DNA from: Candidatus Parcubacteria bacterium
Lineage (GTDB): Bacteria; Patescibacteriota; Minisyncoccia; Phycocordibacterales; UBA12088
Length of the DNA stretch: 64,000 bases
NCBI GenBank assembly: GCA_003694545.1
Contig: RFKD01000051.1
Location: 4,505-68,504 of the forward strand
Direction: 5' to 3'
In this document: in pieces, positions 3,659 to 32,416 of the stretch
How positions within the stretch are numbered: the stretch's first letter is position 1
Layout of the letters: each line of letters opens with the position of its first letter
Translations under genes and position numbers: made by a program
The notes under the pieces: generated by a model
Databases searched by the model: none
Told to the model about the DNA's origin: nothing
The model's input: the letters and a program-made list of their open reading frames with translations, nothing else

Positions 3659-4078
3659 CTACAAGGGGAGCACCTCTTCTTCCTCACGCTCGGCAATAGT
3701 TGTTCGCGCGGCTGGGTCTGCGAACAAGCGCTCCCGCTCAATTGGTTTGCCGGAGATTTCTGAAAAACCGTAAGAACTCTCTTCCATCTTACGCAAGGCG
3801 CGTTCTATTTTCGCGCGGCGCACTTCCAGCTCGCTCAAAATGGCATTGTTGTCGATAAGTTCCTCAAACTTATCCGCAACCTCACTCTTATCGGAAGCGT
3901 CTATTTCTATATCTCCCACGGAAGGCTCCCAATCTGCTTTATTGGTAGGATCTCGCGCTCCGAATTGGGCAAGCTGCTTTTCCACCTCGGCAAGCTCGGC
4001 TTCCAGCATGGCGCGCAGTTCGCGTAAATCTTCGGGGCTGAGATTTGGATGTTGTTGCATAAGCGTATAGTAGCGCAA
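3659..4078 (-). CDS. DksA/TraR-like small protein lacking the C4 zinc-finger cysteines
   Basis: Coiled-coil N-terminus and a C-terminal segment YGFSEISGKPIERERLFADPAARTTIA that aligns to the DksA motif yGxCexCGxxIxxxRLxAxPxAxxCxxC with every Cys replaced. Confidence 0.45.
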   Translation of the reverse strand: MRYYTLMQQHPNLSPEDLRELRAMLEAELAEVEKQLAQFGARDPTNKADWEPSVGDIEIDASDKSEVADKFEELIDNNAILSELEVRRAKIERALRKMEESSYGFSEISGKPIERERLFADPAARTTIAEREEEEVLPL

Positions 4079-9826: not shown

Positions 9827-10600
9827 ATGCGCCTCGTCTCATGGAATGTTAACGGTTTGCGCGCGGTGGTGCGCAAGGGGGCGTGGCGGCCGTTTCTCCA
9901 GCGTTTTGCCGAGGCTGATGTAATCGGCCTTCAGGAAATAAAAGCCACCCCTGATCAGCTCCCTCCAGAGGCGCGCGCTCCAGAAGGGTGGCGCGCCTAC
10001 TTTCACCCCGCGAGCGTTAAAAAAGGCTACAGCGGTGTTGCGCTTTACACCCGGCGGGAGCCTGATGAAGTGCGCTATGAAATGGGATTTACCGACGAAG
10101 AAGGCAGAATTCTTGGAGCTCGCTTTGGCGATCGTTGGGTATTTTCCGTCTACTTTCCCAACGGAGGAGGCGCGCCCGAGCGCTTTACCTACAAACTTGA
10201 TTTTTACGCCCGCGTGCGTGACGAAGCGGCGCGTTTGACGCAAAGCGGATTTTCCGTTGTGTTGATGGGGGACTTTAATGTCGCGCACCAGCCGATCGAT
10301 TTAGCCCGCCCCAAGGAAAACGAAGGAATGATTGGCTTTCACCCCAAGGAGCGTGCGTGGTTCTCTTCCCTTCTTGCGGCGGGATTCGTCGACTCGTTTC
10401 GCCACTTGTCTCCCGCCCAAGAAGGCGCCTATTCTTGGTGGGATCTTATTACCCGCGCTCGCGAGCGCAATGTGGGCTGGCGCATTGACTACATTGTCGT
10501 GCCGCGGCAAGACGCAGCGGGCATACAGGAGGCCCAAGTGGTGCAGGATGTGCTCGGCTCGGACCACTGCCCGGTCGCACTTACGCTTGATGAGGTATAA
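9827..10600 (+). CDS. xth: exodeoxyribonuclease III (AP endonuclease, ExoIII/APE1 family)
   Basis: MRLVSWNVNGLRA..., DVIGLQEIK, FPNGGG, VLMGDFNVAH, WRIDYIVV, GSDHCPVALTL: all ExoIII family motifs. Confidence 0.92.
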   Translation: MRLVSWNVNGLRAVVRKGAWRPFLQRFAEADVIGLQEIKATPDQLPPEARAPEGWRAYFHPASVKKGYSGVALYTRREPDEVRYEMGFTDEEGRILGARFGDRWVFSVYFPNGGGAPERFTYKLDFYARVRDEAARLTQSGFSVVLMGDFNVAHQPIDLARPKENEGMIGFHPKERAWFSSLLAAGFVDSFRHLSPAQEGAYSWWDLITRARERNVGWRIDYIVVPRQDAAGIQEAQVVQDVLGSDHCPVALTLDEV

Positions 10601-11464
10601 AGGACACAAAGAAAACATAAAAGACAGTTATCCACAGGTTTGTCCTTTACAACTATTCCCCGCAGGTGTAATATCTTCTTCGGATCATAAATTAAGAGTG
10701 TGTCGCCACCACATTCGTTTGTTCTTTCTGTTCTTTGCGGGATCGTTGGACCAAGGGCGAGTTGGAGAGAGGTTTCCCCCTTCTCAACTCAACAAGCTCG
10801 AAAAGGTAGCGATCCACGAGCGGCTTTCAGCCGCAAGAGCGCCTGCTGTCCATAGATGGAGCGGGGTCTGGGAGGTGAAAAAATCCCCTCGCCTTTTCAC
10901 CTTCGAGATCCCGCCCCATCACGGGCACATTGCAGGCGCTCTTTTGCGTTTTTTAGGGCAGATTATGCAATTTTTTCAATCCATTTTCCACCATTGATTT
11001 GTTTGTTCCTTGTTGAGAAAATATAGCAAATGTTTCTTAAGAAACAGCGATAATTTACCGAATTTTCGCGAAATATGTTTTCACGTGAAAACACCGGCGC
11101 CCATATGCACGCTCTACCCTTTGGGCCTTTCGGTGTACGGCGTTTTTTTTTGGAACCTCCAGCTAATGATGTTTAAAAGAAAGCAGCTAACTGGGTGTAT
11201 AGTTCTATTTTGGCTTTATTTTACAAGAAATTTTTTAAAATTTGAAAACTTTCACGATTCTGAGGAGGCTGTGTCTCTTCTCGACTGCATTTTTAATTGT
11301 TTTTTATATTTTGATATGGGATTTATCAGTAAATTTTTATATGGTTTCTTAAGAAACAACACTTTTGTTTTCACGTGAAAACTAAATGATAACGCAATAA
11401 AAAAGCGACTACCTACATTCCAAACCATCCCTGTTTCTTTTTGGCTTGCGTTTGGAAGTGCTCG

Positions 11465-12949
11465 CTACACCACGCCGTATTTTTTCAAAATCTCCTTTGT
11501 GGCGGCCTCTTCTGCCTCTTCTTTGGTTTTTTTGCCTTTTTCTCCAATCTGCCGCAGTTCTTCCTCTGGGAGAGCAAGGAGTTCTTGAGCTCGCGCGAGA
11601 AGGTACTCTCTGTTGTTTTTGGAAGGGTCTTCAAGTATCTCTTCGAGCAGAGCATGGAGCACCCAGCCAATCGCAGGCCCTGGTTTCACGTGAAAATGTT
11701 CCATAAGATTCGTCCCGTTGATAGCCAACATACTCACGGAAATCGGATCGCGCAGCGCCTGCTCCACCATTGCGGTGTATTTACGAAGCCGAAACGGCTG
11801 CTCTTTGGGTTTGCCGCTTCCAATGCGGTCGCACATACGCAGGTGGAGAAGATCCCAAATGTTTTCTTTTCCTACACGCTGGATGATGCGCCGAACGGCA
11901 GAGAGGGTAATTTTCTCGGGGTCAGCGAAAAACATATGCCAACGGACAAGCGCCACAACCTTATCCCGCAAGTCGTGGGGAAACTTTAGGCGGTCAAGCG
12001 CGCGTTTCGTGATCGCCGCCCCAACCACCTCATGGTTGTAGAATGTGTGGTCTCCCAAGGCCGGATCGTATGCTTTTGTGGCGGGTTTGCCGATGTCGTG
12101 GAGAAGGGCGGCAAGACGCACCGCAAGAGAAAAGTTTCGGTCGGCGGCATGCTGTACGGAGCGCACAAGATGCTCAAACACATCGTAAATATGGGAGCGG
12201 TTTTGCCCAACATCATAGGTTTCCTCAAGCTCGGGTAACACATAGCGCATAAGGCCGGTTTGGCGCAGCAACGCCATGCCAACTGCCGGGCTGGGGGAGG
12301 CAATAATGCGGATAAACTCATCACGAATTCGCTCGCGAGAAATGTGCTCAAGCAGGGGGGCGTTTTGCGCAATAGCAGTGAGCGTTTCCCCTTCAATGGC
12401 AAGGTTCAATTCAGCGGCAAGCCGAATGGCTCTCAACATCCTTAGTGCGTCTTCAGAAAACCGCTGATTTGGATCTCCTACCGCTCGGATAATTTCCCGG
12501 CGTAAGTCCTCCAATCCGCCAAAGGTATCTATTAAATTTTCACGTGAAATAGAGTACGCCATCGCGTTGATGGTGAAATCGCGCCGCGCGAGGTCTTCTT
12601 CAAGGGAATCCGTAAAAGACACCTCTAAAGGACGCCGAAAATCTGCGTAAGTCCCCTCTGTCCTATACGGCGTTACCTCCACCACTTCGGTGGCTGGGTT
12701 GCCGCTCTCTGTCACCACACCCACGGTTCCAAATTCGTTGTTGTAGTAGGTGTGAGGAAAAAGCCGCTGAATTTTTTCCGGCGTGGCGTTCGTGGTGATG
12801 TCCCAGTCTTTCGGCTCTTTCCCCAAGAGAAGATCCCGCACGCATCCCCCAACGAGGTAGGCTTCGTAACCAGCCTTTTCAAGAGCTTGGGCGACTTCTT
12901 TCACCTCTGGGGGTATGTTGGCAGGAGGAATGGTGGAGGCGGCACGCAT
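11465..12949 (-). CDS. cca: CCA tRNA nucleotidyltransferase / poly(A) polymerase family protein with HD domain
   Basis: GGCVRDLLLGKEPKDWDITTNATPEKI (Pol-beta-like NTase head), RDFTINAMAY, and an HD domain (LLHDIGKPAT). Confidence 0.88.
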   Translation of the reverse strand: MRAASTIPPANIPPEVKEVAQALEKAGYEAYLVGGCVRDLLLGKEPKDWDITTNATPEKIQRLFPHTYYNNEFGTVGVVTESGNPATEVVEVTPYRTEGTYADFRRPLEVSFTDSLEEDLARRDFTINAMAYSISRENLIDTFGGLEDLRREIIRAVGDPNQRFSEDALRMLRAIRLAAELNLAIEGETLTAIAQNAPLLEHISRERIRDEFIRIIASPSPAVGMALLRQTGLMRYVLPELEETYDVGQNRSHIYDVFEHLVRSVQHAADRNFSLAVRLAALLHDIGKPATKAYDPALGDHTFYNHEVVGAAITKRALDRLKFPHDLRDKVVALVRWHMFFADPEKITLSAVRRIIQRVGKENIWDLLHLRMCDRIGSGKPKEQPFRLRKYTAMVEQALRDPISVSMLAINGTNLMEHFHVKPGPAIGWVLHALLEEILEDPSKNNREYLLARAQELLALPEEELRQIGEKGKKTKEEAEEAATKEILKKYGVV

Positions 12950-13024: not shown

Positions 13025-13576
13025 CTAAGCGCTTTCGTTGTTGTCTGAGCCGCTGTCGGAAGAAGGGGGTATTATTGGACGAAAGGCGATGCTTTGGATT
13101 TCTGCATAAATGTTGTCCAGAGTAGCCAAGTCCTGTTCGAGAATTTGTCGAGTTTCTTGAACCCTTTTGAGGGAATTTTGATATTGATGCTTTTCCACAG
13201 AGTTGGGCGGCAGGGAATCTATCTGCTGTTGTATCGCGGTCTCTAACTTAACCAGAAACTCGTGATACTTTTGCCACTCCTGCTGAATGGGTTGGACTGT
13301 GCGCTGAAACACTGGCCAATCGATAGCATGCAGTTCGTTGAGTAGGTTTTGAATTCGAATAGTCAGGCTGATTTCGCGTTCTTTGAGTATTTGCCAAATT
13401 AGTTGTGCTCTTGTGTCTAAGATAGGAAGCTCTGCTACCTTATCAAGACGTAGGCGCACCTTAGTTAGATCCTGAAGCATCAGTTCCGCCACTTCGCGAG
13501 TTTTTCGCACATCTTCAGCGGTAAAGGCTACAGACACGGGCACTTCACCACCCTTTGGAGATTTTGGTTTTTCCAT
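13025..13576 (-). CDS. hypothetical protein (coiled-coil)
   Basis: ORF 13025..13768 trimmed to Met65 (MEKPKSPKGG; rc ATG at 13576), because the upstream extension is simply the reverse translation of tRNA-Arg. No recognisable domain. Confidence 0.4.
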   Translation of the reverse strand: MEKPKSPKGGEVPVSVAFTAEDVRKTREVAELMLQDLTKVRLRLDKVAELPILDTRAQLIWQILKEREISLTIRIQNLLNELHAIDWPVFQRTVQPIQQEWQKYHEFLVKLETAIQQQIDSLPPNSVEKHQYQNSLKRVQETRQILEQDLATLDNIYAEIQSIAFRPIIPPSSDSGSDNNESA

Positions 13577-21187: not shown

Positions 21188-21387
21188 TCTGGTGCGGGTA
21201 GGGGAAATCGGTCGCCAGTTCTAAGCAAATTCACCGCCTGCGGCGTCTCATTTGCTAAGAACTTGCGACCCCGGCTTCGGAGCAACCCAAACGCGAGTTT
21301 GGGGATCCGCTGCGCCTCAGTTCGATTTCCCCATCGAGCTACAAAATCATAGTTGGCGAATGCTTCGCATCCACCTCCTTGATTTTG
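21188..21387. repeat. tRNA-Gly-associated palindromic repeat element, copy 1 (homologous to 51915-52124)
   Basis: Begins with a copy of the last roughly 17 nt of tRNA-Gly as it appears on the + strand (tgcgggtaggggaaatcgg). It contains a conserved core CCAGTTCTAAGCAAATTC-N-GAATTTGCTAAGAACT (14-bp imperfect inverted repeat around a CCGCCTGCGGCG mini-hairpin) and an inverted T-arm/acceptor-like segment (CTCAGTTCGATTTCCCC...CAAAATCATAG). It ends at the real tRNA 3' end. Confidence 0.6.
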
Positions 21388-21458
21388 TGCGGGTAGGGGG
21401 AATTGAACCCCCGTCTCATCCATGGCAAGGATGCGTTCTACCACTAAACTATACCCGC
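21388..21458 (-). tRNA. tRNA-Gly (anticodon GCC)
   Basis: Reverse complement reads GCGGGTA TA GTTT AGTGGTA GAAC G CATCC TTGCCAT GGATG AGAC GGGGG TTCAATT CCCCC TACCCGC A. Clean cloverleaf, CCA not encoded. Confidence 0.9.
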
Positions 21459-21797
21459 CCAATCTTTAGCGTAGCAAACACGCAAGCTTAGTTCAAGCAA
21501 GCACGCTCGGGCGCATCTCGCAGGGGAGGGGGAGAGCGGCCAGGTGCTTCGGAAACGGCGGCGTTTATAAAAACGCCAAAAAGTCTCAAAACGCCAATGT
21601 CCTTGTGGATAGCGCTGTGGATAGGTGGATAAATCGAAGTCTCCTATGAAAAACAAGGGTTTTTTATAGGTTGTAAGTTGTCTTTAACCTTTACATGCCG
21701 TCTTTTCCGGATCGTATAACCACGCGAGTTGTTGATAACTGAAGGTGTGTCTCACTTGCTGGTCTGCGGAAGCGGGTGTGCTACAGTACTTTCGCGT

Positions 21798-22226
21798 ATG
21801 CGAAACAGGCGCGCCCAACGCCGGTTTGGCCTCTTGGCGCAGGCGCTCGCGGAGCGGTTTTTGGTGGAACGCAAAGGGTGGCACATTTTGGCGCGCAACG
21901 AACGCTCCGGTAGAGCGGAAGCAGATCTTATTGGAAAAGCGCCGGACGGATCACTGCGCGCGGTGGAGGAGAAGGGGGCGCGCGGTGCGATTGACGGGGA
22001 GGGGAATGTTCTGCGCGCTCCGTCCATCTTGCCCGTTGAACACCTCACGCGCGAGCAAATGGCGCGCGTGGCGCGCGTGCTGCGCGATTGGCGGGTAAAA
22101 GGCGGCGCTCACAAAAAGGCGGGCGCGGGGAAATGGGCCGTGGATGTGTGCCTCGTTATTGTTGACGAGCAAACCGCTCGCGCCCGCGTTGAACATCTGG
22201 AAGCTCTGATTGAGGGGCAGGGGTAA
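21798..22226 (+). CDS. YraN (UPF0102) family putative endonuclease
   Basis: AERFLVERKGWHILARNERSGRAEADLIGKAPDGSLRAVEEKGARG matches the YraN core (..GE.DLI.......VEVK.R). Start set to the Met at 21798. Confidence 0.65.
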   Translation: MRNRRAQRRFGLLAQALAERFLVERKGWHILARNERSGRAEADLIGKAPDGSLRAVEEKGARGAIDGEGNVLRAPSILPVEHLTREQMARVARVLRDWRVKGGAHKKAGAGKWAVDVCLVIVDEQTARARVEHLEALIEGQG

Positions 22227-22289: not shown

Positions 22290-22363
22290 CGGGGTGTGGT
22301 GTAATGGTAGCACGCATGCTTTGGGTGCATGTAGTCCGAGTTCGAGTCTCGGCACCCCGACCA
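22290..22363 (+). tRNA. tRNA-Pro (anticodon TGG), CCA encoded
   Basis: CGGGGTG TG GTGT AATGGTA GCAC G CATGC TTTGGGT GCATG TAGT CCGAG TTCGAGT CTCGG CACCCCG A CCA. The AT-rich island begins immediately downstream. Confidence 0.9.
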
Positions 22364-22485
22364 GATGCAACTTTTATTAATTCTGCGAGAAGATGTTTGC
22401 TCGCTCCGCCTCGCTAACGCTCGGCTCCGCTCGCATTTTTCCTTATATTTCGAGATTAAATCAAAGGGCTTTTGAAAATCAAAAA

Positions 22486-22782
22486 TCAGTTTTCTATCCA
22501 GCAGGCGGCGGTTCGTTCCAATTTTCCCGCAACAGATTTTATTTCATCAAAAGCGTCTGACGAAGCCAGTTCTTCAGCGTGATGAGCGGATAAAATCCAC
22601 TCTTTCAATGGTTCAATCCAATTGTTTCCCTTTCGCCCAAAATCAGCCTTTCTTTTGTTAAGGTCTGTTTTTGTTTTAATGAGCTCGTCTTTTTTGGCAA
22701 GATACGTTTCTTTTTCAATACTGCCGTCCAAAAAGGCGTTGACCAATCTATTCAACTTTTGCTGGGTTTCCTCTTGTCCCAA
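22486..22782 (-). pseudogene. 5'-truncated remnant of a large serine recombinase (C-terminal coiled-coil segment only)
   Basis: NRLVNAFLDGSIEKETYLAKKDELIKTKTDLNKRK resembles the C-terminal coiled-coil of large serine recombinases (..AYLDGxIsKEEYlxKKxELexexxeL..). There is no catalytic N-domain. It lies 120 nt from the tRNA-Pro 3' end. Confidence 0.4.
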
Positions 22783-22822
22783 TCTTCCCGTGCGCGGGCG
22801 ACAAAGTGGAACTCCCTATTTG

Positions 22823-22851
22823 TTGACTAAAGCAAAAATAATTCATATACT
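22823..22851 (+). promoter_or_regulatory. sigma70-like promoter for the XRE gene and the downstream defence operon (TTGACT-17 nt-TATACT)
   Basis: -35 TTGACT at 22823-22828, a 17-nt spacer, and -10 TATACT at 22846-22851, about 55 nt upstream of the XRE start. The region is AT-rich, so a chance match is possible. Confidence 0.35.
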
Positions 22852-22907
22852 ACCAATATAAGCAAGAACTTGAGTATACATAACTATATTAATAAAGTTT
22901 TATAATT

Positions 22908-23117
22908 ATGCCAAAGAGTAAAGCAACTATCGGCGAGAATATACGGAAGTACCGCCTGCAAAAAAATATGTCGCAAGACCGCCTGTCTAAATTGGCGGAT
23001 GTCGCTTTTCATACCATCGTCAAGATAGAATCCGGCGAGACGCCAAATCCTACAATAGAAACGGTCAGGAAAATCGCCGCCGCGCTTGGCGTGAGTATTG
23101 ATGATTTAATGAAGTAA
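22908..23117 (+). CDS. XRE-family helix-turn-helix transcriptional regulator (Cro/C1-type)
   Basis: IGENIRKYRLQKNMSQDRLSKLADVAFHTIVKIESGETPNPTIETVRKIAAALGVSIDDL, a canonical HTH_XRE. Its stop is 2 nt before the start of the next gene. Confidence 0.85.
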   Translation: MPKSKATIGENIRKYRLQKNMSQDRLSKLADVAFHTIVKIESGETPNPTIETVRKIAAALGVSIDDLMK

Positions 23118-23119
23118 CT

Positions 23120-26100
23120 ATGACGAACCATTCCGATCTCACATTTATCACAAACGAAGAAGGACAGAATCTCCTCGAGCGTTTCAGGGTGTTGATAAAA
23201 GACACCGAGTTCTTTGATGTCCTTGTAGGCTATTTCTATACCAGCGGCTTTTATACCCTATATAAATCATTGGAGAAAACTAAAAAAATCAGGATTCTTA
23301 TCGGCATCAGCACCAACCGGCAGACACTTGATCTGATAGAAAAGGCAGAGCAACAGGAGCTTACATTCTCCCATGCGGAGACGAAGGAACACTTTTCCAA
23401 TCTGCTTGCTGGAGAAATGGAGAGCGCGGAGGACAGCAGAAAAGTAGAAGAAGGGGTTACAAAGTTTATGGAGTGGTTGCAAAACGGAAAACTCGAAATC
23501 AGGGCGTATCCGACAGAAAATATCCACGCCAAGCTTTACATTATGACTTTTGTAGAGAGCGACAGAGACGTCGGGAGGGTCATCACAGGTTCAAGCAATT
23601 TTACCTACTCAGGCTTAGTGGAAAATCTTGAGTTCAATGTGGAGTTGAAAAACCGCGCTGATTATGAATTCGCCAAAGAAAGATTTGAGGAGCTTTGGAA
23701 AGAAGCTGTTGACGTCAGCGAAAAATACATTCAGACGATTCAGGAAAAAACCTGGCTCAACCCGAATGTAACCCCCTATGAGCTATACCTAAAATTTCTG
23801 TACGAATATTTTAAAGACGAGTTAAGCCAAACCGATGAAATGTTTTGTCGCTACTTACCCCACGACTTCAGGAAACTTGAATATCAGGAGCAAGCGGTTT
23901 TAAACGCCAAAAAAATCCTCGAGGAATACGGTGGTGTATTCATTTCGGATGTTGTGGGTTTGGGAAAGACTTACATTTCAGCCATGATCGCCGGTCAGCT
24001 TGACGGCAGAACGCTGGTCATCGCTCCGCCGGTTTTGCTTGACAAAACAAATCCCGGCTCATGGCCAAATGTGTTTTCCGATTTTCGGATTTCGGCGGAC
24101 TTTGAGTCCATTGGAAAATTAGACGATATCCTGCGCAGAGGAACAGAAAAATACAAGAACATTATTATAGATGAAGCCCATCGATTCCGCACGGAAACCA
24201 ACATCACCTACGAAAAATTAGCCGAAATCTGTCGAGGCAAGCGAGTGATTCTGGTCACAGCCACGCCGTACAACAATTCCCCAAAAGACATCTTAAGCCA
24301 GATAAAGCTGTTCCAAAAAGCAAGGAGAAGCACGATTCCCAATCTGCCTGATTTGGAAGGCTTCTTTGGAGGATTGGAGAGGAAGCTTAAAAAGCTCGAC
24401 AGGCAAAAAGATTACTCCGAATACATCAGAGTAGTTAAAGAGAATGCCAAAGAAATCCGCGAGAAGGTGCTCAAGTATTTGATGGTGCGTCGCACCAGAA
24501 CTGAAATCTTAAAATACTTTCCCGATGATTTGGCTAAGCAAAATCTCAAGTTTCCGGATGTCGATGATCCAATGCCGCTTTTTTACCAGCTTAATGAAGA
24601 AGAAGACAAAATATTCAACACAACCATAGAGATGATTACCAAAAAATTTACTTACGCTCGTTACACGCCACTTTTGCCAAAATACTATAAAGGTTCAATT
24701 GACCTTTTTGAGGAACAATCCCAGAAGAACATGGGTAAGTTCATGAAGATTCTTTTGGTGAAACGGCTTGAGAGCAGCTTCTTTGCTTTCAAGCAATCAA
24801 TTGGCCGCTTTATCTCCTCTTATGAGATGTTTATCAAAGAGTTCAAAAAGGGACATGTTTATATCAGTAAAAAATACGCGAACAAGATTTTTGAATATCT
24901 GGAAAATGATGATGACGAAGCCATCCAAAAGCTGATCGATGGGGGTAAAGCCGAAAGATACGACAGCGAGGATTTTACCGAAGACTTTATCAAAGATCTG
25001 GAAAGCGATCTCACTATATTGACCACTATCTTATCTCTCTGGCAAAACATTAAACGAGATCCCAAACTACTCACGTTCCTTGATGAACTTTCAAAAAATA
25101 AAATACTCCAAAATAAGCTCATCGTTTTTACCGAATCAAGAGAAACCGCCGAATATCTGGCAAGAAATATCAATAATAAATTTGGAGACATCACGCTTTG
25201 TTTTACTGGCAGATCAGAAGAAGCCACCCGCGATAAAGTGATCGATAATTTTGATGCAAAAGTGCGCCATCCCAAAGACGATTATCGCATTCTGGTTTCG
25301 ACCGAGGTCTTGTCAGAGGGCGTCAACCTGCATCGCTCCAATGTGGTCGTAAATTATGACATACCCTGGAATCCAACCCGCATGATGCAAAGGGTCGGAC
25401 GCATCAACAGGATCGATACGACGTTCGACAAAATCTATACTTTTAATTTTTTCCCAACCAAACAATCGAACGACCAGATCAAACTCAAAGAAGCGGCAGA
25501 GGCTAAAATCAATGCTTTTCTTACATTGCTAGGCGGCGATGCGGCGTTGTTAACTGAAGGCGAACCGGTTGACTCACATGAGCTTTTCAATCGGTTAATC
25601 TCCAAAAAGACCCTGATTGGCGAAGACGAAACCGAAGAAAGCGAGCTTAAGTATTTGCAAGTGATTAAAAATATTCGGGACAAAAACCCTGACCTATTTG
25701 AAAAAATCAAGCGTTTGCCCAAGAAAGTCCGGACAGCAAAAAAGGATGTTGGACATCGAGATTCACTGGTAACTTATTTCAGGCGTGGCAAGCTACAGAA
25801 ATTTTTTATAGCTGATCAAAGCTCGGTTGCCAGGGAACTTGATTTTATAAGTGCTGCACGTATACTCGCAAGTGCCAGTGATGATAAAAAACAAAAACTG
25901 CCGGAAAAGTTTTTTGACCTTCTGGATAAAAATAAAGAGGCTTTTCTTCGTGCCACTACCGAAGAGATGGTTGAACCCGTAAAAAAACGTGGTCATGACA
26001 GCGCCGCACAATTGCTCAAAATTCTCAAAGCTACAGTGGGGAACACACAACCGTTCACGGACGAGCAGGAGCAGTATATTAAACAGGTCATCGTCCAGTT

Positions 26101-26308
26101 GGAGGAAGGCGGTTTACCTAGGCAAACAGTCAAAGAAACCCTCAAGGCGCTGAATGAACTCAAGCAGGATTTAATTAACCCGTTTAAAGTGCTGGCTACA
26201 CTGCAAAGCCACATCCCCGAGCAATTTTTACGACAGCACTATGCAGAGCAGAATCCGCGTTCAGTCGGGAAAAGGGAAGTGATTCTATCAATGTATTTAA
26301 CAGGATAA
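23120..26308 (+). CDS. PLD-family (HKD) nuclease domain fused to an SNF2-family helicase (putative restriction / DNA-translocase subunit)
   Basis: N-terminal PLD-like region (KKIRILIGIST...NIHAKLYIMTF...VITGSSNFTYSGL: HxK...GSxN). SNF2 motifs I GLGKTYIS, II IIIDEAHRFR, III VILVTATPYNN, and helicase-C motifs LVSTEVLSEGVNL and NPTRMMQRVGRINR. Confidence 0.85.
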   Translation: MTNHSDLTFITNEEGQNLLERFRVLIKDTEFFDVLVGYFYTSGFYTLYKSLEKTKKIRILIGISTNRQTLDLIEKAEQQELTFSHAETKEHFSNLLAGEMESAEDSRKVEEGVTKFMEWLQNGKLEIRAYPTENIHAKLYIMTFVESDRDVGRVITGSSNFTYSGLVENLEFNVELKNRADYEFAKERFEELWKEAVDVSEKYIQTIQEKTWLNPNVTPYELYLKFLYEYFKDELSQTDEMFCRYLPHDFRKLEYQEQAVLNAKKILEEYGGVFISDVVGLGKTYISAMIAGQLDGRTLVIAPPVLLDKTNPGSWPNVFSDFRISADFESIGKLDDILRRGTEKYKNIIIDEAHRFRTETNITYEKLAEICRGKRVILVTATPYNNSPKDILSQIKLFQKARRSTIPNLPDLEGFFGGLERKLKKLDRQKDYSEYIRVVKENAKEIREKVLKYLMVRRTRTEILKYFPDDLAKQNLKFPDVDDPMPLFYQLNEEEDKIFNTTIEMITKKFTYARYTPLLPKYYKGSIDLFEEQSQKNMGKFMKILLVKRLESSFFAFKQSIGRFISSYEMFIKEFKKGHVYISKKYANKIFEYLENDDDEAIQKLIDGGKAERYDSEDFTEDFIKDLESDLTILTTILSLWQNIKRDPKLLTFLDELSKNKILQNKLIVFTESRETAEYLARNINNKFGDITLCFTGRSEEATRDKVIDNFDAKVRHPKDDYRILVSTEVLSEGVNLHRSNVVVNYDIPWNPTRMMQRVGRINRIDTTFDKIYTFNFFPTKQSNDQIKLKEAAEAKINAFLTLLGGDAALLTEGEPVDSHELFNRLISKKTLIGEDETEESELKYLQVIKNIRDKNPDLFEKIKRLPKKVRTAKKDVGHRDSLVTYFRRGKLQKFFIADQSSVARELDFISAARILASASDDKKQKLPEKFFDLLDKNKEAFLRATTEEMVEPVKKRGHDSAAQLLKILKATVGNTQPFTDEQEQYIKQVIVQLEEGGLPRQTVKETLKALNELKQDLINPFKVLATLQSHIPEQFLRQHYAEQNPRSVGKREVILSMYLTG

Positions 26309-26312
26309 TAAT

Positions 26313-29147
26313 ATGGACAGACAACAAGCTCAAAAGCTGATTAAAGAAACTTTTGAAAATCCTTTTGATAAAGGCAAATTTGCCCGTTTTATAAAAAATC
26401 TCCTTAACCGAGTTGAAGACGCCCCTTTCACGTACCAAGGCAATTATATCCCCGAAGCTTACCAACCTTACATCTCATCGTTGGAGCGTCTTTACAAATA
26501 TTCAGGCGGAGAACATAAGATTGACATACTTGTCGTTCAACTGAAAAAACAAACTTCGCTGGAACGCGCCCGTACCATGCAGCGCAATTTCATTGCCCGG
26601 TACTTAAACGGCAGCCGTGGCGGTGAAATGAAAGATGCCGCGCTGGTTGCCTTTGTTTCTCCTGGTGAAGTGGACTGGCGTTTTTCGCTGATTACAATGG
26701 ACTACCGTTTTGAAGAAACAAAAGACGGAAAAGTAAAAGTCAAAGAAGAATTTACTCCGGCAAGGCGCTGGTCGTTTCTGGTAGGAAGCAACGAAGCCAG
26801 CCACACCGCCCAGAGCCGACTGGTGAACATTCTCGTCGATGATGAGCACCATCCCACACTCCAGCAACTGGAAGAAGCCTTCAACATTGAAACTGTTACC
26901 AAAGAGTTCTTCATCAAATACCGCGAGATGTTTATCCGTACGAAGGAAGAACTGGATACAGTGGTGGCACGAGACGCCAAAATCAAAGCCGATTTTGATG
27001 CCAAAGGTATTGACACGGTCAACTTTGCCAAAAAGCTGCTCGGCCAAATCGTCTTTCTTTATTTTCTGCAAAAGAAAGGCTGGTTTGGCGTCAAGCGGGA
27101 CGCCAAATGGGGTACGGGCTCCAAACATTTTTTACGAGAACTTTTCGAAGGCAAATATGGCAGCTATAACAATTTTTTCAACGATATTCTTGAACCTCTC
27201 TTTTATGAAGCGTTGCGCATCGACCGCAGTCATGACGACCATTATTACAGCCGGTTCAATTGTAAGATTCCGTTTCTGAACGGAGGGCTGTTTGATCCTA
27301 TCGGCAATTACGACTGGGTACACACGGACATCAACATACCGAACGAGCTTTTTTCCAACACAGTAAAAACCAAAGAAGGCGATATTGGTAACGGTATTTT
27401 AGATATCTTTGACCGCTACAACTTTACGGTCAAGGAAGATGAGCCTTTGGAAAAAGAGGTCGCCATCGATCCGGAGCTTTTGGGTAAAACGTATGAAAAA
27501 TTCAACGCTATCCGTCCGGATAATTTTGAAGAATACAAGGCGGCTTTAAAGAGCGGGCAAAAGGGTGCTGAAAACAAGTTCAACAAGACATTTGGTGTTT
27601 ACTACACCCCGCGGGAAATCGTGCATTACATGTGCAAGCAGAGCCTGATTAATTATCTTTTCACTAAGGCGGAAGAAGAGGGGATTTCTAACGATATTAA
27701 AAAGCAAGACATCGAAGACCTGATCGAAATCGGCGAGATGATTACCGAACACGAGGCAACCGCTCTTAACAAAGAGGATAAAATTAGAAACGGCATCCAG
27801 AAATCCACGAAATACGAGAGGCTTTCATCCGACAGTATACGAAAAAATGCCAAAATCATAGATAACTGGCTGGCTGACATTACCGTGTGCGATCCGGCAG
27901 TGGGTTCCGGCGCCTTCCCGGTGGGCATGATGCATGAAATTGTCAAGGCTCGTAATCTCCTTTCCACATTTATTCAAGACCCTAACCGCACCATTTATAC
28001 CTTCAAACGCGAATGCATCGAAAAATCCCTCTATGGCGTGGACATCGACCCCGGCGCGGTGGAGATTGCCAAACTGCGGCTCTGGCTGTCGCTGGTGGTG
28101 GATGAGGATGATATCCGCCAGATCAAGCCTCTGCCGAATTTGGATTATAAAATTGTGTGCGGAAATTCGCTGCTGGGTGTGGAGAAGAATTTGTTTAATA
28201 ACCAACTGTTTGCCGAACTGGAACGACTGAAGCCGCTTTACTTTCATGAAACCAATCCCACAAAAAAGCAGGAATACAAAAAGGAGATTGATGACTTGAT
28301 TAGCCAAATTACCAACGGACATACGGAATTTGATTTTGAGGTCTATTTTTCCGAGGTGTTTCATAAGAAGGGCGGGTTTGATGTGGTGATTGGAAATCCG
28401 CCGTACATCCAACTTCAAAAAGCGATTGATGATAAGCAAAAATACGCTGATCTCTATAAAAATGCATGCTACGAGACTTTTGATAGGTGCGGAGATATTT
28501 ACTGCCTCTTTTATGAAAAAGGCATACACATTCTCCGACCCAATGGCGTTTTGTGTTTTATCACCAGCAATAAATGGATGCGGGCAGGCTACGGCAAATC
28601 TCTCCGAAGATTTTTCCTCAAGCATAATCCCAGACTTTTGATTGATTTAGGTCCCGGCGTTTTTGAAAGCGCGACCGTGGATACCAATATTCTCATAATG
28701 CAAAAATCCGAGGAAAAACCCGCCCCGGTGTGTCTCGATGCTGTTACCTTAACTGAAGAGGCAAAAGAATCGGACATTGCTTTGTATATTAAGAAGAACA
28801 GAAAACGCTTGACGGCTCTGAGCGAGAATGCTTGGTTTATTGGCAGCGCTGCTGAACAGCAACTCAAAGAAAAAATCGAACGCATAGGTAAACCACTGAA
28901 AGATTGGGATGTGAATATTTATTATGGTATTAAAACCGGCCTAAACGAAGCCTTTATCATCACTACTGAAAAGCGTAATGAAATACTAGCAAACTGCAAA
29001 GATGAAGAAGAAAGAAAACGCACCGAAGCCATCATCAAACCTATTTTACGAGGCAGAGATATCAAGCGATATTATCAAGCGATATTATTACGAATGGGCA
29101 GGGTTTTGGGTGATAGTAATTCCAGCAGGCTGGACAAATGTAAATAA
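26313..29147 (+). CDS. gamma-class N6-adenine DNA methyltransferase (Eco57I/PglX/type IIG-like), interrupted near its C-terminus by a frameshift
   Basis: FGVYYTPREIVHYMCKQSL (motif X), CDPAVGSGAFPVG (motif I), VIGNPPYIQLQ (motif IV NPPY), and a long N-terminal domain typical of PglX/type IIG enzymes. The reading frame ends KPILRGRDIKRYYQAILLRMG... just after the ILRGRDIKRY TaqI_C hallmark. Confidence 0.85.
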   Translation: MDRQQAQKLIKETFENPFDKGKFARFIKNLLNRVEDAPFTYQGNYIPEAYQPYISSLERLYKYSGGEHKIDILVVQLKKQTSLERARTMQRNFIARYLNGSRGGEMKDAALVAFVSPGEVDWRFSLITMDYRFEETKDGKVKVKEEFTPARRWSFLVGSNEASHTAQSRLVNILVDDEHHPTLQQLEEAFNIETVTKEFFIKYREMFIRTKEELDTVVARDAKIKADFDAKGIDTVNFAKKLLGQIVFLYFLQKKGWFGVKRDAKWGTGSKHFLRELFEGKYGSYNNFFNDILEPLFYEALRIDRSHDDHYYSRFNCKIPFLNGGLFDPIGNYDWVHTDINIPNELFSNTVKTKEGDIGNGILDIFDRYNFTVKEDEPLEKEVAIDPELLGKTYEKFNAIRPDNFEEYKAALKSGQKGAENKFNKTFGVYYTPREIVHYMCKQSLINYLFTKAEEEGISNDIKKQDIEDLIEIGEMITEHEATALNKEDKIRNGIQKSTKYERLSSDSIRKNAKIIDNWLADITVCDPAVGSGAFPVGMMHEIVKARNLLSTFIQDPNRTIYTFKRECIEKSLYGVDIDPGAVEIAKLRLWLSLVVDEDDIRQIKPLPNLDYKIVCGNSLLGVEKNLFNNQLFAELERLKPLYFHETNPTKKQEYKKEIDDLISQITNGHTEFDFEVYFSEVFHKKGGFDVVIGNPPYIQLQKAIDDKQKYADLYKNACYETFDRCGDIYCLFYEKGIHILRPNGVLCFITSNKWMRAGYGKSLRRFFLKHNPRLLIDLGPGVFESATVDTNILIMQKSEEKPAPVCLDAVTLTEEAKESDIALYIKKNRKRLTALSENAWFIGSAAEQQLKEKIERIGKPLKDWDVNIYYGIKTGLNEAFIITTEKRNEILANCKDEEERKRTEAIIKPILRGRDIKRYYQAILLRMGRVLGDSNSSRLDKCK

Positions 29148-29718
29148 AGGTGAAGTCACCGCAGAAAAATTTATAAACATGAAGTTTCCTGCATTAATGC
29201 AGTATTTGAAAATATATGAAGAAAAAGCCAGAAAACGCGATGATCAAGGTGATTATTGGTGGGAATTACGCCATTGTGCCTACTACCCCGAATTTGAGAA
29301 AGAGAAGGTGGTGTGGAGTGATATTGCCTCAGAACCAACTGTTACCGTTTTACCTAAGGGATTATATTTCAATAATACCGTTTACATGGTTTCTTCAAGA
29401 ACCCCACGCTATTTTGCCGGTATTTTAAATTCTCGCGTGATAAAATGGTATTTCTCTAAAATAGCAACGGATCTAGGAGAAAAAGGTCGGCGCTTTTTTA
29501 AAATCTTTGTTGAGGTTATGCCTTTGATACCCATCACCCCTGCCAACCAGCCCATTGTTCAGCAAATAGAGGCATTGGTAGATAAAATCCTTGCAGAAAA
29601 GAAACAAAACCCGCAAGCAGACACCAAAGAATACGAACACCAGATTGACCAGCTCGTCTATAAACTCTACGATCTGACACCGGAGGAAATTAAGATTGTG
29701 GAAAATTCACGATCGTGA
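29002..29718 (+). CDS. C-terminal TaqI_C-like target-recognition segment of the methyltransferase, in the +1 frame (continuation after the 13-bp duplication)
   Basis: The +1 frame gives DIIKRYYYEWAGFWVIVIPAGWTNV...WWELRHCAYYPEF...YFAGILNSRVIKWYF, which matches the TaqI_C / type IIG specificity-domain pattern (WxELR..YY, LNS.v..wy). Confidence 0.7.
   Translation: MKKKENAPKPSSNLFYEAEISSDIIKRYYYEWAGFWVIVIPAGWTNVNKGEVTAEKFINMKFPALMQYLKIYEEKARKRDDQGDYWWELRHCAYYPEFEKEKVVWSDIASEPTVTVLPKGLYFNNTVYMVSSRTPRYFAGILNSRVIKWYFSKIATDLGEKGRRFFKIFVEVMPLIPITPANQPIVQQIEALVDKILAEKKQNPQADTKEYEHQIDQLVYKLYDLTPEEIKIVENSRS
29064..29089 (+). repeat. perfect 13-bp tandem duplication (caagcgatattat x2) causing a +1 frameshift inside the methyltransferase
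   Basis: Read directly from the sequence: 29064-29076 equals 29077-29089. Removing one copy restores ...ILRGRDIKRYYYEWAGFWVIVIPAGW..., the expected TaqI_C continuation. Confidence 0.9.
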
Positions 29719-31967
29719 ATATGATCACTCGCGTAATAAAAATTAAAAACTGTGCGTCATTTGTTGATTTTGTACCGGGTGCCGACCTGCCGGCATTTAG
29801 GAAATACAACTTAATTTACGGATGGAATGGATCGGGTAAAACCAATTTTTCACGAGTATTACGTTCTTTTGAATTACGGGAAAATTATTATGCTGACTTG
29901 AATAATCCAACAGAATTTGAATTTCAACTTGATAATGGTACAGCAATAAGTCAACAAGATTTAACGGTTTTCCCAAATATTCGAGTGTTTAACAAGGATT
30001 TTATCAATGAGAGCGTTTTTTGTACCGGCGGACCAAAGCCGATTTTCTTTCTGAGTAAAGAAAGTAAGGAAGACCAAGAAAAAATCATGCAACTAGGGAA
30101 TCAATTACGGAAATTGAGAGAAGATTTAGATTTTAAAAGAGCACTCCTTGATAAAGCTAAAATAAGAAAAGAAAAAATGCTTTCTGATAAAGCGCGTGAT
30201 ATTAAAACCGCTCTCACAACATCTCGTAGTGATAAGTACAGAAATTATGAACGGCCAAATCTAGAAAAAGCAATTCAGGACAACGTGAATGAACTTAAAA
30301 GCAATGTCGATAAATATAAATTGGCAGGGGATAGAGTTGCCATTCTCCAAAAGACAATACAACAAACGACTAAGCCAAAAGTTGAATCTTTGGCATTCCC
30401 AGATTTTGATATTTCTGAAACTGTAAGTGAGGTAAAAAAAGTTTTACAGACTACTGTTACTTCTCATATTATTGAGAGTCTTAAATTGGATGAGATGCTG
30501 AATAAGTGGGTAGAGCATGGGCTTTCTATTCACAAGGAAAGAGGGCTGAAAAATTGCGCTTTTTGTAATCAAGTAATCCCGCATCATAGATTTTCGGAAC
30601 TAGAACAACACTTTAACGATGATTACCAAAGGCTTATTGAGGAGCTGAGTAGCTTAAAGCAAACACTTGAAGGTAAAAAAATTTCAATTTCTTTTCCAGA
30701 CGCTTCAAGTTTTTATGACGATTTAATAGAAGAGTATTTAAACGCCAAAAAAGAAGCTGAAGAAATAGTTAAGAAATTTAATCAAAACATAGATTCTCTT
30801 ATTTCTGCTCTTGTGCAGAAGGAGCAAAGGCCATTTTCAAAAGTAGATTTAGAAGAATGGAAACAAGTTGAAATAAGGCCATTTGAAAATATAAACATTA
30901 TTATTTCAAAGCATAACGAAAGGTCAGACAATTTTGATAAACAAATAGATGAAAGTAAACACATTTTAGAGATGCACTATATTGCAGATTTTATCCATTC
31001 TTATTTTGAACAGATGGATGAAATAGAAAAACTAGAGAAAGAAGTTTCGGAATTAGAGAATGAAATAAAAACTAACGAGACGAAAGAAAACGAGTTAAAA
31101 AACTCACTCATAAGTCATCGCATTCCCGCTAATCGGATTAACGAAGACTTGAAGCATTTTTTGGGACGTGATGATATTCGCCTAGTTGCTACCGATAAGG
31201 AGGAAGGTTATCAGATTTTCCGTAACGGAACGCTTGCAAAAGATTTAAGCGAGGCCGAAAAAACTGCATTGGCGCTCGTATATTTTCTGACAAAAATACA
31301 CGAGAAAGGGTTTGACTTGAAAAATGGTGTGATTGTTATGGATGATCCGGTTTCAAGCTTTGATTCTAATTCAATTTTTCAAGCATTTGGGTTTATCAAA
31401 GAGTCAATCAAAGAGGCAAAACAGATTTTTATTTTGACACATCACTTTGACTTTTTTAGACAAGTGAAAAATTGGTTTTCGTATTACAAGGAAGATGAAC
31501 GAGAATTCTTTATGATGGTATGCGGCAAAGAAGATTCAGTGAGAAAGTCCCGAATTGCAACAATCGACAAATTACTGATTGGCTATGAATCCGAATACCA
31601 CTTTTTGTTTAGCATTTTGTACAGATTTGCGAAAAATAATGAAGTACAATTGGAAAACGCATATCCAATTCCAAATATTGCGCGTAAATTTCTTGAGAGT
31701 TTTTTGGCTTTCAGAGTACCTGTTTTAGCAAACGGACGACAAAAAGAGCCGAACTTGTACCATAGATTGGAAAAAATTGATTTTGATAAAAAAAAGAAGG
31801 AACGTATTCTCCGGTTTATTGAAACTCACTCCCATCCGCGATACGAGTCTGGAGTACAAGATTTTGACATGACTATTTTGGGAGAGACGAAAGAAATCGT
31901 GAATGATTTACTTGCTTTAGTAGAGCACGAAGACAAAAAACACTTTGAATTTTTAGTGAAAAGTTAG
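29715..31967 (+). CDS. RloC/PrrC-like AAA_13 family ATPase (restriction-linked anticodon-nuclease-type protein) with coiled-coil CxxC zinc-hook
   Basis: Walker A NLIYGWNGSGKTNFSRVL at the N-terminus. A roughly 400-aa K/E-rich coiled-coil contains NCAFCNQVIPHH (CxxC). ABC-signature-like LSEAEKTALALVYFL, Walker B/D-loop VIVMDDPVSSFDSNS, H-loop IFILTHHFDF, and a C-terminal R/E/H-rich segment (KKERILRFIETHSHPRYE). GTG at 29715 overlaps the upstream stop (GTGA); an alternative ATG is at 29721. Confidence 0.75.
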   Translation: MNMITRVIKIKNCASFVDFVPGADLPAFRKYNLIYGWNGSGKTNFSRVLRSFELRENYYADLNNPTEFEFQLDNGTAISQQDLTVFPNIRVFNKDFINESVFCTGGPKPIFFLSKESKEDQEKIMQLGNQLRKLREDLDFKRALLDKAKIRKEKMLSDKARDIKTALTTSRSDKYRNYERPNLEKAIQDNVNELKSNVDKYKLAGDRVAILQKTIQQTTKPKVESLAFPDFDISETVSEVKKVLQTTVTSHIIESLKLDEMLNKWVEHGLSIHKERGLKNCAFCNQVIPHHRFSELEQHFNDDYQRLIEELSSLKQTLEGKKISISFPDASSFYDDLIEEYLNAKKEAEEIVKKFNQNIDSLISALVQKEQRPFSKVDLEEWKQVEIRPFENINIIISKHNERSDNFDKQIDESKHILEMHYIADFIHSYFEQMDEIEKLEKEVSELENEIKTNETKENELKNSLISHRIPANRINEDLKHFLGRDDIRLVATDKEEGYQIFRNGTLAKDLSEAEKTALALVYFLTKIHEKGFDLKNGVIVMDDPVSSFDSNSIFQAFGFIKESIKEAKQIFILTHHFDFFRQVKNWFSYYKEDEREFFMMVCGKEDSVRKSRIATIDKLLIGYESEYHFLFSILYRFAKNNEVQLENAYPIPNIARKFLESFLAFRVPVLANGRQKEPNLYHRLEKIDFDKKKKERILRFIETHSHPRYESGVQDFDMTILGETKEIVNDLLALVEHEDKKHFEFLVKS

Positions 31968-32416
31968 TGGAAAGTGTTACCCAACTCGTTTGAGAATCTT
32001 TTTAAGAGTTTCTGTTGTCTCCCGAAAACCCGGGCGAAGCCCGAAGGCGAGTGGGCAAAAAGAAAAGGGGGAATGGGGGAAATGAATTTTTGCCTGCTCG
32101 CCAATACCGCGCCGCAGGCGCGGCAGGGGTGGGAAGCGGCTCGTCTCTGCTCAAGCCAGAGAAACAAAGCCCGCAAAGCGCGTTTCCTTAATTGAAAAAG
32201 AGTTTTGCGCGCGCCCGTTAAAAGAAAAAGAAATTGTTGCGTGCTTTACTTGCCGCCGTCAGGCGGCGAGCCGCTGGGCGGGTTCTGCGCCCGTCAGGGC
32301 GCAGATTGTCGCTCAAAGAAAGTTCGAGCGGCGTTCAGTAATTGCGACTAAGGGAATGAAAGAGAGGTGTTGCAAGTATTGCTTTATTCACTCTTCACAA
32401 CAGGGGGGTCAAACGG

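Follow-up and report, generated by a model that had tools for sequence, protein, structure and literature searches.

A cluster of parS-type palindromes and a candidate small-RNA gene with a DnaA-box promoter in the xth-cca spacer of a Paceibacteria-like genome

The spacer described here occupies positions 10601-11464 of a 64,000-nucleotide (nt) stretch of a Candidatus Parcubacteria genome (contig RFKD01000051.1), and this whole stretch will be called the window. It lies between two convergent genes, xth, which ends at 10600 on the forward (+) strand, and cca, which ends at 11465 on the reverse (-) strand; both ends were re-read from the window. The spacer is probably made up of a parS-type centromere cluster and an unannotated small-RNA gene with a DnaA-box promoter, split by AT-rich filler which is specific to the lineage. 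The palindromes match the parS core in sequence, they are clustered locally and they are conserved in position, and the RNA gene has the geometry of a promoter and a terminator as well as compensatory pairs in its hairpin. By analogy with characterised systems we infer that ParB binds the palindromes.

The site with which the palindromes have to be compared is well described. The 14-bp parS core GTTTCACGTGAAAC is bound by ParB/Spo0J in many phyla; the canonical site is TGTTTCACGTGAAACA and the idealised consensus TGTTTCAC-GTGAAACA, and the form found is TGTTNCACGTGAAACA in Bacillus and Corynebacterium and GTTTCACGTGAAAC in Mycobacterium (PMC7022226; bioRxiv 10.1101/724823). Six palindromes of the ParB type are present within 1.5 kb of the window, two parS-like sites and two centre variants in the spacer and two parS-like sites in cca. 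The coordinates and sequences which the original prediction gave for the spacer, the DnaA box and the palindromes were all exact when they were checked again. The sites are the following:

11031-11046, P2a, TGTTTCTTAAGAAACA, the outer arms of parS with the centre TTAA for ACGT; 10 of the 14 parS-core positions match.
11076-11093, P1a, parS-like TGTTTTCACGTGAAAACA; the 14-bp core TTTTCACGTGAAAA starts at 11078 and has 2 mismatches, at position 1 of the half-sites.
11344-11358, P2b, GTTTCTTAAGAAACA, in which the centre variant is repeated; it contains GTTTCTTAAGAAAC at 11344-11357.
11366-11382, P1b, parS-like TGTTTTCACGTGAAAAC, 8 nt from P2b; the core TTTTCACGTGAAAA starts at 11368 and has 2 mismatches.
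11683-11696, inside cca, parS-like GTTTCACGTGAAAA, 1 mismatch; the codons read H-F-H-V-K.
12537-12550, inside cca, parS-like TTTTCACGTGAAAT, 2 mismatches; the codons read I-S-R-E-N.

The parS-like sites of the window thus match the parS core at 12-13 of its 14 positions, and the 12-bp core is exact in four copies. GTTTTCACGTGAAAAC is found at 11077-11092 and again at 11367-11382, and the 12-mer core TTTCACGTGAAA is also present inside cca at 11684-11695 and 12538-12549. That four copies of the 12-mer are far beyond chance was borne out by counting, as TTTCACGTGAAA with at most one mismatch has 4 copies in the 64 kb against 0.31 expected, a number which was reached in none of 100 shuffles. TTTCTTAAGAAA has 2 copies in the window against 0.16 expected. 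Of the 7 matches which the looser pattern TTTC-N4-GAAA has in the window, 6 fall within 11033-12549, and the hexamer CACGTG occurs only 7 times in the window, with 4 of the 7 being the palindrome sites. Scanning about 85 kb of the genome gave only one further site, a 14-mer with two mismatches at 40304, which is taken as a chance match. The palindromes were also considered as restriction sites (CACGTG for PmlI, CTTAAG for AflII). This reading is unsupported, CTTAAG not being depleted elsewhere (9 copies), and it is also opposed by the conserved unit being a 14-16-mer and not a hexamer.

The window belongs to a JGI metagenome contig of 101 kb. The source organism belongs to the Patescibacteria (Candidate Phyla Radiation, CPR) and is Paceibacteria-like; the closest cca genes among the GTDB species genomes are 58-61% identical and carry the labels Kaiserbacteria, Nomurabacteria and Paceibacterota. 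Scans for cca in genome and metagenome contigs gave relatives of at most 61% identity only, and close relatives were obtained by protein searches followed by look-up of their contigs. The loci of relatives are referred to by L numbers. L172 (GCA_015491145.1) is the nearest relative outside the species, with an xth 77% and a cca 81% identical to those of the window; L163 is of the L172 lineage, the xth of L173 is 73% identical and the cca of L171 63%. Within the species, an identical spacer was assembled independently from another run (Logan, L162), and a spacer with 98% identity is found in the NCBI metagenome-assembled genome GCA_026004575.1 (L164), so the spacer sequence is not an assembly artefact.

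The spacer of L172 is 447 nt, about half the length of the one in the window, it is GC-rich and it cannot otherwise be aligned with the window. Still it contains GTTTCTTAAGAAAC, 13 nt further on ATTTCACGTGAAAC, and a perfect GGTTTCACGTGAAACC adjoining the stop codon of cca. The P2 and parS pair of L172 (2485/2512) is the ortholog of the P2b and P1b pair, and P2 is identical, and next to a parS copy, in L172/L163. Inside the L172 cca a perfect GTTTCACGTGAAAC at 2898 has the codon position of the window site at 11683, and a site with one mismatch at 3752 has that of the window site at 12537. L172 has in total four parS sites, with 0-1 mismatches, at places equivalent to those of the window. The residues "FHV" and "ISRE" encoded by the sites belong to variable parts of the cca protein and are not common to other cca homologues; the constraint is therefore on the DNA.

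The same motif is enriched throughout the clade. In the Paceibacteria-like cca loci, which make up 634 kb, the pattern GTTTC-N4-GAAAC was found 59 times where 0.6 would be expected, about 100-fold, whereas in 1.09 Mb of cca loci from outside the CPR it was found once against 1.04 expected. The most frequent centres in the clade are ACGT (12), ATAT (10), ACAT (4), ACGA (4), ACAA (3) and TTAA (3). When positions 6-7 of the half-sites are counted, AC (41) and AT (36) come first and TT, which is the P2 type, is third with 13; hybrid sites with one P2-type half and one P1-type half are present in L030 and L171. This spectrum together with the hybrids fits one family of sites which tolerates changes at the centre. 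In the clade the sites are concentrated in cca, in or just upstream of the gene for UPF0102 (YraN-like), and beside clusters of DnaA boxes, to which they are adjacent in L025 (3817-4030) and in L002/L004/L005/L006.

Some details of these relatives should be noted. The UPF0102 genes in L004 (3617-4090), in L005 (2858-3313) and in their homologues (L002, L006, L007, L009, L011, L015) contain several in-frame parS-type palindromes, which encode repeated V-S-R/H/Y-E-T peptides in this YraN-like nuclease, and one perfect parS is located 30-50 nt upstream of the start codon. The UPF0102 gene of the window has no parS-type palindrome. In L025 a tRNA gene is followed by four intergenic parS-type palindromes with a spacing of 34-42 bp (3817-4030), then by AT-rich DNA, motifs of the type TGTCCTTTA and several DnaA boxes. 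The whole set takes up about 250 bp; judged from the sequence, this looks like a compact origin-plus-centromere-like arrangement.

In the original prediction a binding array for a dimeric regulator was one of the options for the palindromes. A binding array in kind is indeed what we find, though probably as a segregation element (parS) and not as a set of transcription-factor operators. The operator version, in which the palindromes serve an ordinary transcription factor, dimeric but not ParB, for the control of cca, the RNA gene or UPF0102, is unlikely. It would account for the operator-like position of the single GTTTCACGTGAAAC ahead of the UPF0102 start codon in relatives; ParB was not found in the searched DNA, and both P2 and the copies with T at position 1 depart from canonical parS. 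Against this the window sites are not at a promoter, being placed where two genes end and within a coding sequence, the motif does not differ from the parS core known throughout bacteria, and the many copies at varying positions in the coding regions of cca and UPF0102 are typical of parS but not of operators. A segregation element is preferred to an operator array because the motif is the canonical ParB site.

Several properties expected of parS sites are seen here. The palindromes are of 14-16 bp and of the form tGTTTCACGTGAAACa, with 1-2 core mismatches in the window and 0-1 in L172; the copies are few and clustered and often lie in genes, six being within 1.5 kb and two of them in cca in the roughly 85 kb scanned; and selection is seen in relatives, both in the positions kept in L172 and in the roughly 100-fold enrichment in the clade. 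It is normal for parS sites to lie within coding sequence. They are usually near oriC, and in this respect there is a DnaA-box cluster 10 kb away and a strand switch near 8.6 kb, the GC skew being flat or uninformative. The probable assignment to parS is made because of the match to a well-known site, the clustering and the conservation.

If the palindromes work as in characterised ParABS systems, dimers of ParB would nucleate on them, bind CTP, slide onto the flanking DNA and build a partition complex. This complex would recruit SMC and together with ParA segregate this, presumably origin-proximal, part of the chromosome.

A number of observations weigh against the parS and RNA-gene interpretation. 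No gene for ParB, ParA or DnaA turned up in the window, in the 75.7 kb searched of the source contig or in the matching approximately 42 kb of GCA_026004575.1, and the relatives likewise gave none up to about 6 kb from cca. This search for parB, soj and dnaA was done by tblastn against the window and all loci, and the queries were B. subtilis, Caulobacter, Thermus and E. coli sequences; a Pfam search of the larger open reading frames (ORFs) gave no ParB, ParA or DnaA. None of the window sites is a perfect 14-mer, and position 1 of both intergenic copies is not the G which Arg173 contacts in the ParB-parS structure of Caulobacter; in that structure no specific contact to position 6 comes from Gly201. 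P2 is unlike parS at 4 of its 14 positions and is without experimental precedent, the GC skew is uninformative as to the origin proximity of the parS cluster, and the conservation of the RNA is based on two full-length and two partial or divergent sequences. In the literature nothing relevant was found on parS or ParB in Patescibacteria, CPR or Parcubacteria.

The other element in the spacer is the candidate RNA gene on the (+) strand. The original prediction reasoned that a region between two 3' ends needs no promoters; this premise is wrong because the spacer holds a conserved promoter. The promoter and the RNA have the following parts:

10598-10606, (-) strand, TAAAGGACA, the 9-bp motif TGTCCTTTA in reverse complement; of the three copies at the promoter it comes first, and it shares bases with the stop codon of xth.
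10618-10626, (-) strand, TAAAAGACA, a copy of TGTCCTTTA with one mismatch; it aligns with TAAAGGACA in L172, L173 and L171.
10628-10637, (+) strand, TTATCCACAG, a perfect DnaA-box 9-mer and a conserved G; transcription is predicted to start about 45 nt downstream of it.
10641-10674, (+) strand, core promoter given by a promoter scan, made up of TGTCCTTTACA with the -35 element TTTACA (10646-10651), 17 nt, and the -10 element TAATAT (10669-10674).
10682-10954, (+) strand, candidate structured RNA of about 270 nt; fold z-score -7.4 against shuffles.

The 9-mer TTATCCACA at 10628-10636 is an exact DnaA box, as had been predicted, and there is no second box within one mismatch in 10601-11464. The whole module, that is TAAAGGACA, then TAAA(A/G)GACA, TTATCCACAG, 2-3 nt and TGTCCTTTACA, is almost invariant in the window, L172, L173 and L171. 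TAAAGGACA has kept its position and orientation in L172, L173 and L171, TTATCCACAG is invariant in these three and the window, and a block TTGTCCTTTACA is invariant in L171, L172 and L173. A looser module including the DnaA box is found at the equivalent place in L002, L003, L005, L006, L007 and L008, and the geometry of a -35 element, a 16-17 nt spacer and TAnnnT is repeated in L002, L003, L005 and L006.

Around DnaA boxes, and also overlying the -35 and -10 elements of the RNA promoter, there are 3-4 copies of the motif TGTCCTTTA (variant TGTCTTTTA), which occurs in either orientation; this pattern is seen in the window (10598-10651) and in L002, L004-L008, L011, L014, L025, L030 and L171-L173. 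In the 64 kb of the window the exact TGTCCTTTA is found in the 10598-10651 region only. It could be the site of an origin or cell-cycle regulator, analogous to the Spo0A, CtrA and HP1021 sites at other origins. One DnaA box together with three copies of TGTCCTTTA suggests that the promoter is controlled by DnaA and by a further DNA-binding protein. DnaA can regulate transcription, as it does at the promoter of dnaA, and it would likewise regulate the RNA promoter if the box is used.

The predicted RNA consists of a 5' hairpin, a U/C-rich single-stranded stretch GUUCUUUCUGUUCUUUG, a middle domain which is specific to the lineage and a long 3' hairpin (10835-10943, about 50 bp) followed by a T-run, which resembles an intrinsic terminator. 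The L172 counterpart is about 190 nt (z-score -4.5). When the 3' hairpins of the window and L172 are compared, 4 of the 33 predicted pairs have changed on both sides and none is broken. The blocks of primary sequence in common are GUGUGUCGCCACC and the U/C-rich (G)UUCUUUCUG(U/G)UCUUU. The features of a small-RNA gene are thus found together, namely a promoter, a terminator hairpin with a T-run and a structure with compensatory changes. Such a gene would be transcribed from the promoter directly after xth, over roughly 10682-10954 on the (+) strand, and would be ended by the long hairpin terminator; transcription itself we infer from these sequence features. Our guess is that the product is a trans-acting regulatory RNA which uses the conserved U/C-rich single-stranded stretch. 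Rfam 15 has no family for it, only tRNAs reaching the threshold in the window and 13 relatives, and permissive Rfam scans of the window and of the RNA regions of L002 and L005 gave only spurious matches to miRNA-like hairpins. A non-coding RNA locus had been among the options originally proposed; a candidate RNA gene is there, but it sits in the GC-normal part at 10682-10954 and not in the AT-rich DNA by which the palindromes are separated.

Another RNA family without annotation was seen at the equivalent syntenic position, on the (-) strand, in L002 (7958-8142), L003 (6425-6542), L005 (7985-8145), L006 (5092-5275) and L007 (6255-6411). This RNA looks different from that of the window, although it stands behind the same promoter. 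Its 5' domain is conserved and comprises GGCCCAGAAAGGGCG..., a loop UACCUCCAA which resembles an anti-Shine-Dalgarno sequence, and AACGUUCAUAACA; there are compensatory pairs, a long hairpin forms the terminator, and Rfam gives no match. A covariance model, R1, built from the RNA of L002, L003, L005 and L006 at this position detects L007 and does not detect the window, L171, L172 or L173, and by nhmmer only the promoter module is common to the loci of the window and of distant relatives. The bodies of the RNAs are therefore not detectably homologous across the wider clade, and the window RNA is treated as a putative lineage-specific or fast-evolving counterpart of the RNA of the distant relatives.

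The third part of the spacer is the AT-rich stretch. The original prediction described the entire spacer as AT-rich, which is correct for 10956-11464 (35% GC) and not for 10681-10955, where the GC content of 53% equals that of the flanking genes. Apart from a low-GC island at 22-32 kb, 10956-11464 is the 500-nt stretch of the window with the lowest GC content. Its central part is the following:

11094-11343, AT-rich filler, 250 bp, 35.6% GC, between the two palindrome modules.

This stretch is missing from the 447-nt spacer of L172. In the comparison with the 98% identical L164 nearly all of the base changes are found at about 11264-11329, together with a 2-nt indel which breaks the ORFs of 70-122 aa. 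Reading the stretch as protein-coding (ORFs 11010-11378 on the (+) strand and 11252-11428 on the (-) strand) was rejected, these ORFs having no Pfam match, low-complexity translations and the indel just mentioned. The AT-rich part is not significantly structured either, with fold z-scores of -2.4 and -1.6. It is probably unconstrained, lineage-specific filler, possibly left by the duplication which made the second P2-P1 module.

It had also been proposed that the region is a decayed mobile element with inverted-repeat ends. The stretch and the modules around it would then be such an element, or a miniature inverted-repeat transposable element, of which the palindromes are the ends. Near-identical modules (15 and 17 nt exact) do bracket about 250 bp of atypical composition. 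The modules are however in direct order, variant then parS twice, and not inverted; no target-site duplication is evident, no other copy exists in the 64 kb, there is no transposase-like ORF and the ORFs that exist are indel-broken in the sister strain, and the palindrome sites persist in L172 where the insert is absent. We regard a mobile element as extremely improbable.

A further proposal was an origin-like element with a DnaA box and an unwinding element. The spacer would then be (part of) the chromosomal oriC, with the DnaA box nucleating DnaA, the 250 bp of AT-rich DNA as the unwinding element and the palindromes as accessory sites. The spacer does have a perfect DnaA box and the most AT-rich native DNA of the window, and it is near a strand switch, genes being on the (-) strand for at least 17 kb to the left of about 8.6 kb and mostly on the (+) strand to the right up to about 46 kb; moreover, parS sites are usually close to oriC, and in relatives palindromes of this kind adjoin real DnaA-box clusters. 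Yet the box is single and not part of a cluster, it is embedded in a promoter module conserved in relatives, and it is about 330 nt away from the AT-rich stretch with the RNA gene and its terminator in between. The AT-rich stretch is absent in L172 and is the part which changes fastest between strains. The position of the GC-skew minimum had been put forward as a check; no minimum was found at 10.6-11.5 kb, neither in the window nor in 75.7 kb of the source contig, and in the latter no dnaA or dnaN was found. An origin in the spacer must on these grounds be considered very unlikely.

A better candidate for oriC, as judged from box arrangement, is present 10 kb from the spacer, between the genes for tRNA-Gly (21387-21458) and UPF0102 (21798-22226). 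Three contiguous DnaA-box-like 9-mers, CTATCCACA, CTATCCACA and TTATCCACC, are found at 21604-21632, within 21596-21640, and a fourth, TTATCAACA, 100 nt away at 21730-21738; an equivalent cluster lies beside UPF0102 in L172 (8629-8657 and 8754). The circumstantial evidence of the parS cluster, the strand switch near 8.6 kb and this box cluster suggests that the region may be origin-proximal. The arrangement of palindromes, AT-rich DNA, TGTCCTTTA and DnaA boxes in L025 likewise implies that the real origin may lie in the tRNA/UPF0102/cca neighbourhood.

A more far-reaching version of the centromere interpretation is that the cluster is written in two codes, TGTTTCTTAAGAAACA being the site of a second, diverged protein of the ParB family, that the RNA, with its promoter carrying a DnaA box and several copies of TGTCCTTTA, is a regulatory RNA coupled to the cell cycle and specific to Paceibacteria, and that cca-UPF0102 marks the origin and centromere. 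We consider this combination improbable. If it were true, a Noc-like switch of specificity at positions 6 and 7 would exist outside Firmicutes, and TGTTTCTTAAGAAACA, found beside parS in two lineages, would be the target of a second ParB-family protein. It would also mean that cca-UPF0102, and not dnaA, marks the origin/centromere region of these reduced genomes.

With the simpler interpretation, a parS cluster next to an RNA gene with a DnaA-box promoter, the spacer holds an element of an ordinary kind, though in a lineage which has been little studied, and current understanding is not overturned. The use of the finding lies elsewhere. A parS site is a cheap landmark, recognisable from sequence, for the origin-proximal region and the ParB/SMC segregation machinery, and we found no published account of origins or centromeres in uncultured Patescibacteria; the conserved cluster at cca/UPF0102 gives a handle on their chromosome organisation. 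To this are added an unannotated structured RNA with an unusually conserved DnaA-box promoter and the motif TGTCCTTTA, which accompanies DnaA boxes throughout the clade; each offers a testable lead on how the cell cycle is controlled when the genome is very small.

The surroundings of the spacer can be described briefly. The flanking genes code for an Xer-type integrase, for xth (exonuclease III family) and for the CCA-adding enzyme, and the gene order, cca converging on xth with the integrase behind it and then rpsO, NYN and PNPase, is kept in relatives. Directly upstream of cca and on the same strand is a gene (13025-13576, (-) strand) for a conserved 183-aa predicted coiled-coil protein without family assignment, which is also present in L162, L163 and L172. 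It was considered as a ParB and rejected, being a coiled-coil protein instead. The low-GC island (about 22400-32000, 30-45% GC) begins directly after tRNA-Pro (22290-22363) and has genes for a PLD-nuclease/SNF2-type helicase (1062 aa), an Eco57I-family methyltransferase (944 aa), a protein with a TaqI_C specificity domain and an AAA_13 ATPase (750 aa). It resembles a restriction/defence island which came in by horizontal transfer, with a tRNA gene as the insertion point.

The cluster resembles the chromosomal parS sites of B. subtilis, Caulobacter crescentus, Mycobacterium and Streptococcus in its palindromic core GTTTCACGTGAAAC, in having several copies within a few kb, some of them in coding sequence, in its degenerate copies with 1-2 mismatches, and in the DnaA-box clusters found alongside in relatives of the window organism. 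It differs from them in being tied to cca and UPF0102 instead of parB or gidB, in the T for G at position 1 of the intergenic copies of the window, in the symmetric variant with a TTAA centre conserved beside the window sites, and in that ParB was not found in the searched DNA of the window organism.

The variant P2 can be compared with the Noc-binding site (NBS). Noc is known from Firmicutes only. The NBS, TATTTCCCGGGAAATA, is bound by the ParB paralogue Noc and is a palindrome derived from parS by symmetric changes at a few positions including position 6 (bioRxiv 10.1101/724823). P2 is like it in being a symmetric derivative of parS which coexists with parS in one genome. However, where the NBS has A at position 1 and C at position 6, P2 keeps G and has T, respectively, with a further T at position 7, and whereas the NBS is scattered on the chromosome and avoids the terminus, P2 is found only beside parS.

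With oriC the spacer has in common a DnaA box, an AT-rich stretch and parS nearby, and it is unlike oriC in the missing box cluster, in the lack of conservation of the AT-rich part and in the RNA gene between box and AT-rich DNA. The promoter of the RNA gene is like known DnaA-regulated promoters in having a single consensus box just upstream of, or overlapping, a sigma-70-type promoter, while it is set apart from them by its target, which in the window is a non-coding RNA, and by the 3-4 conserved TGTCCTTTA 9-mers which flank the box.

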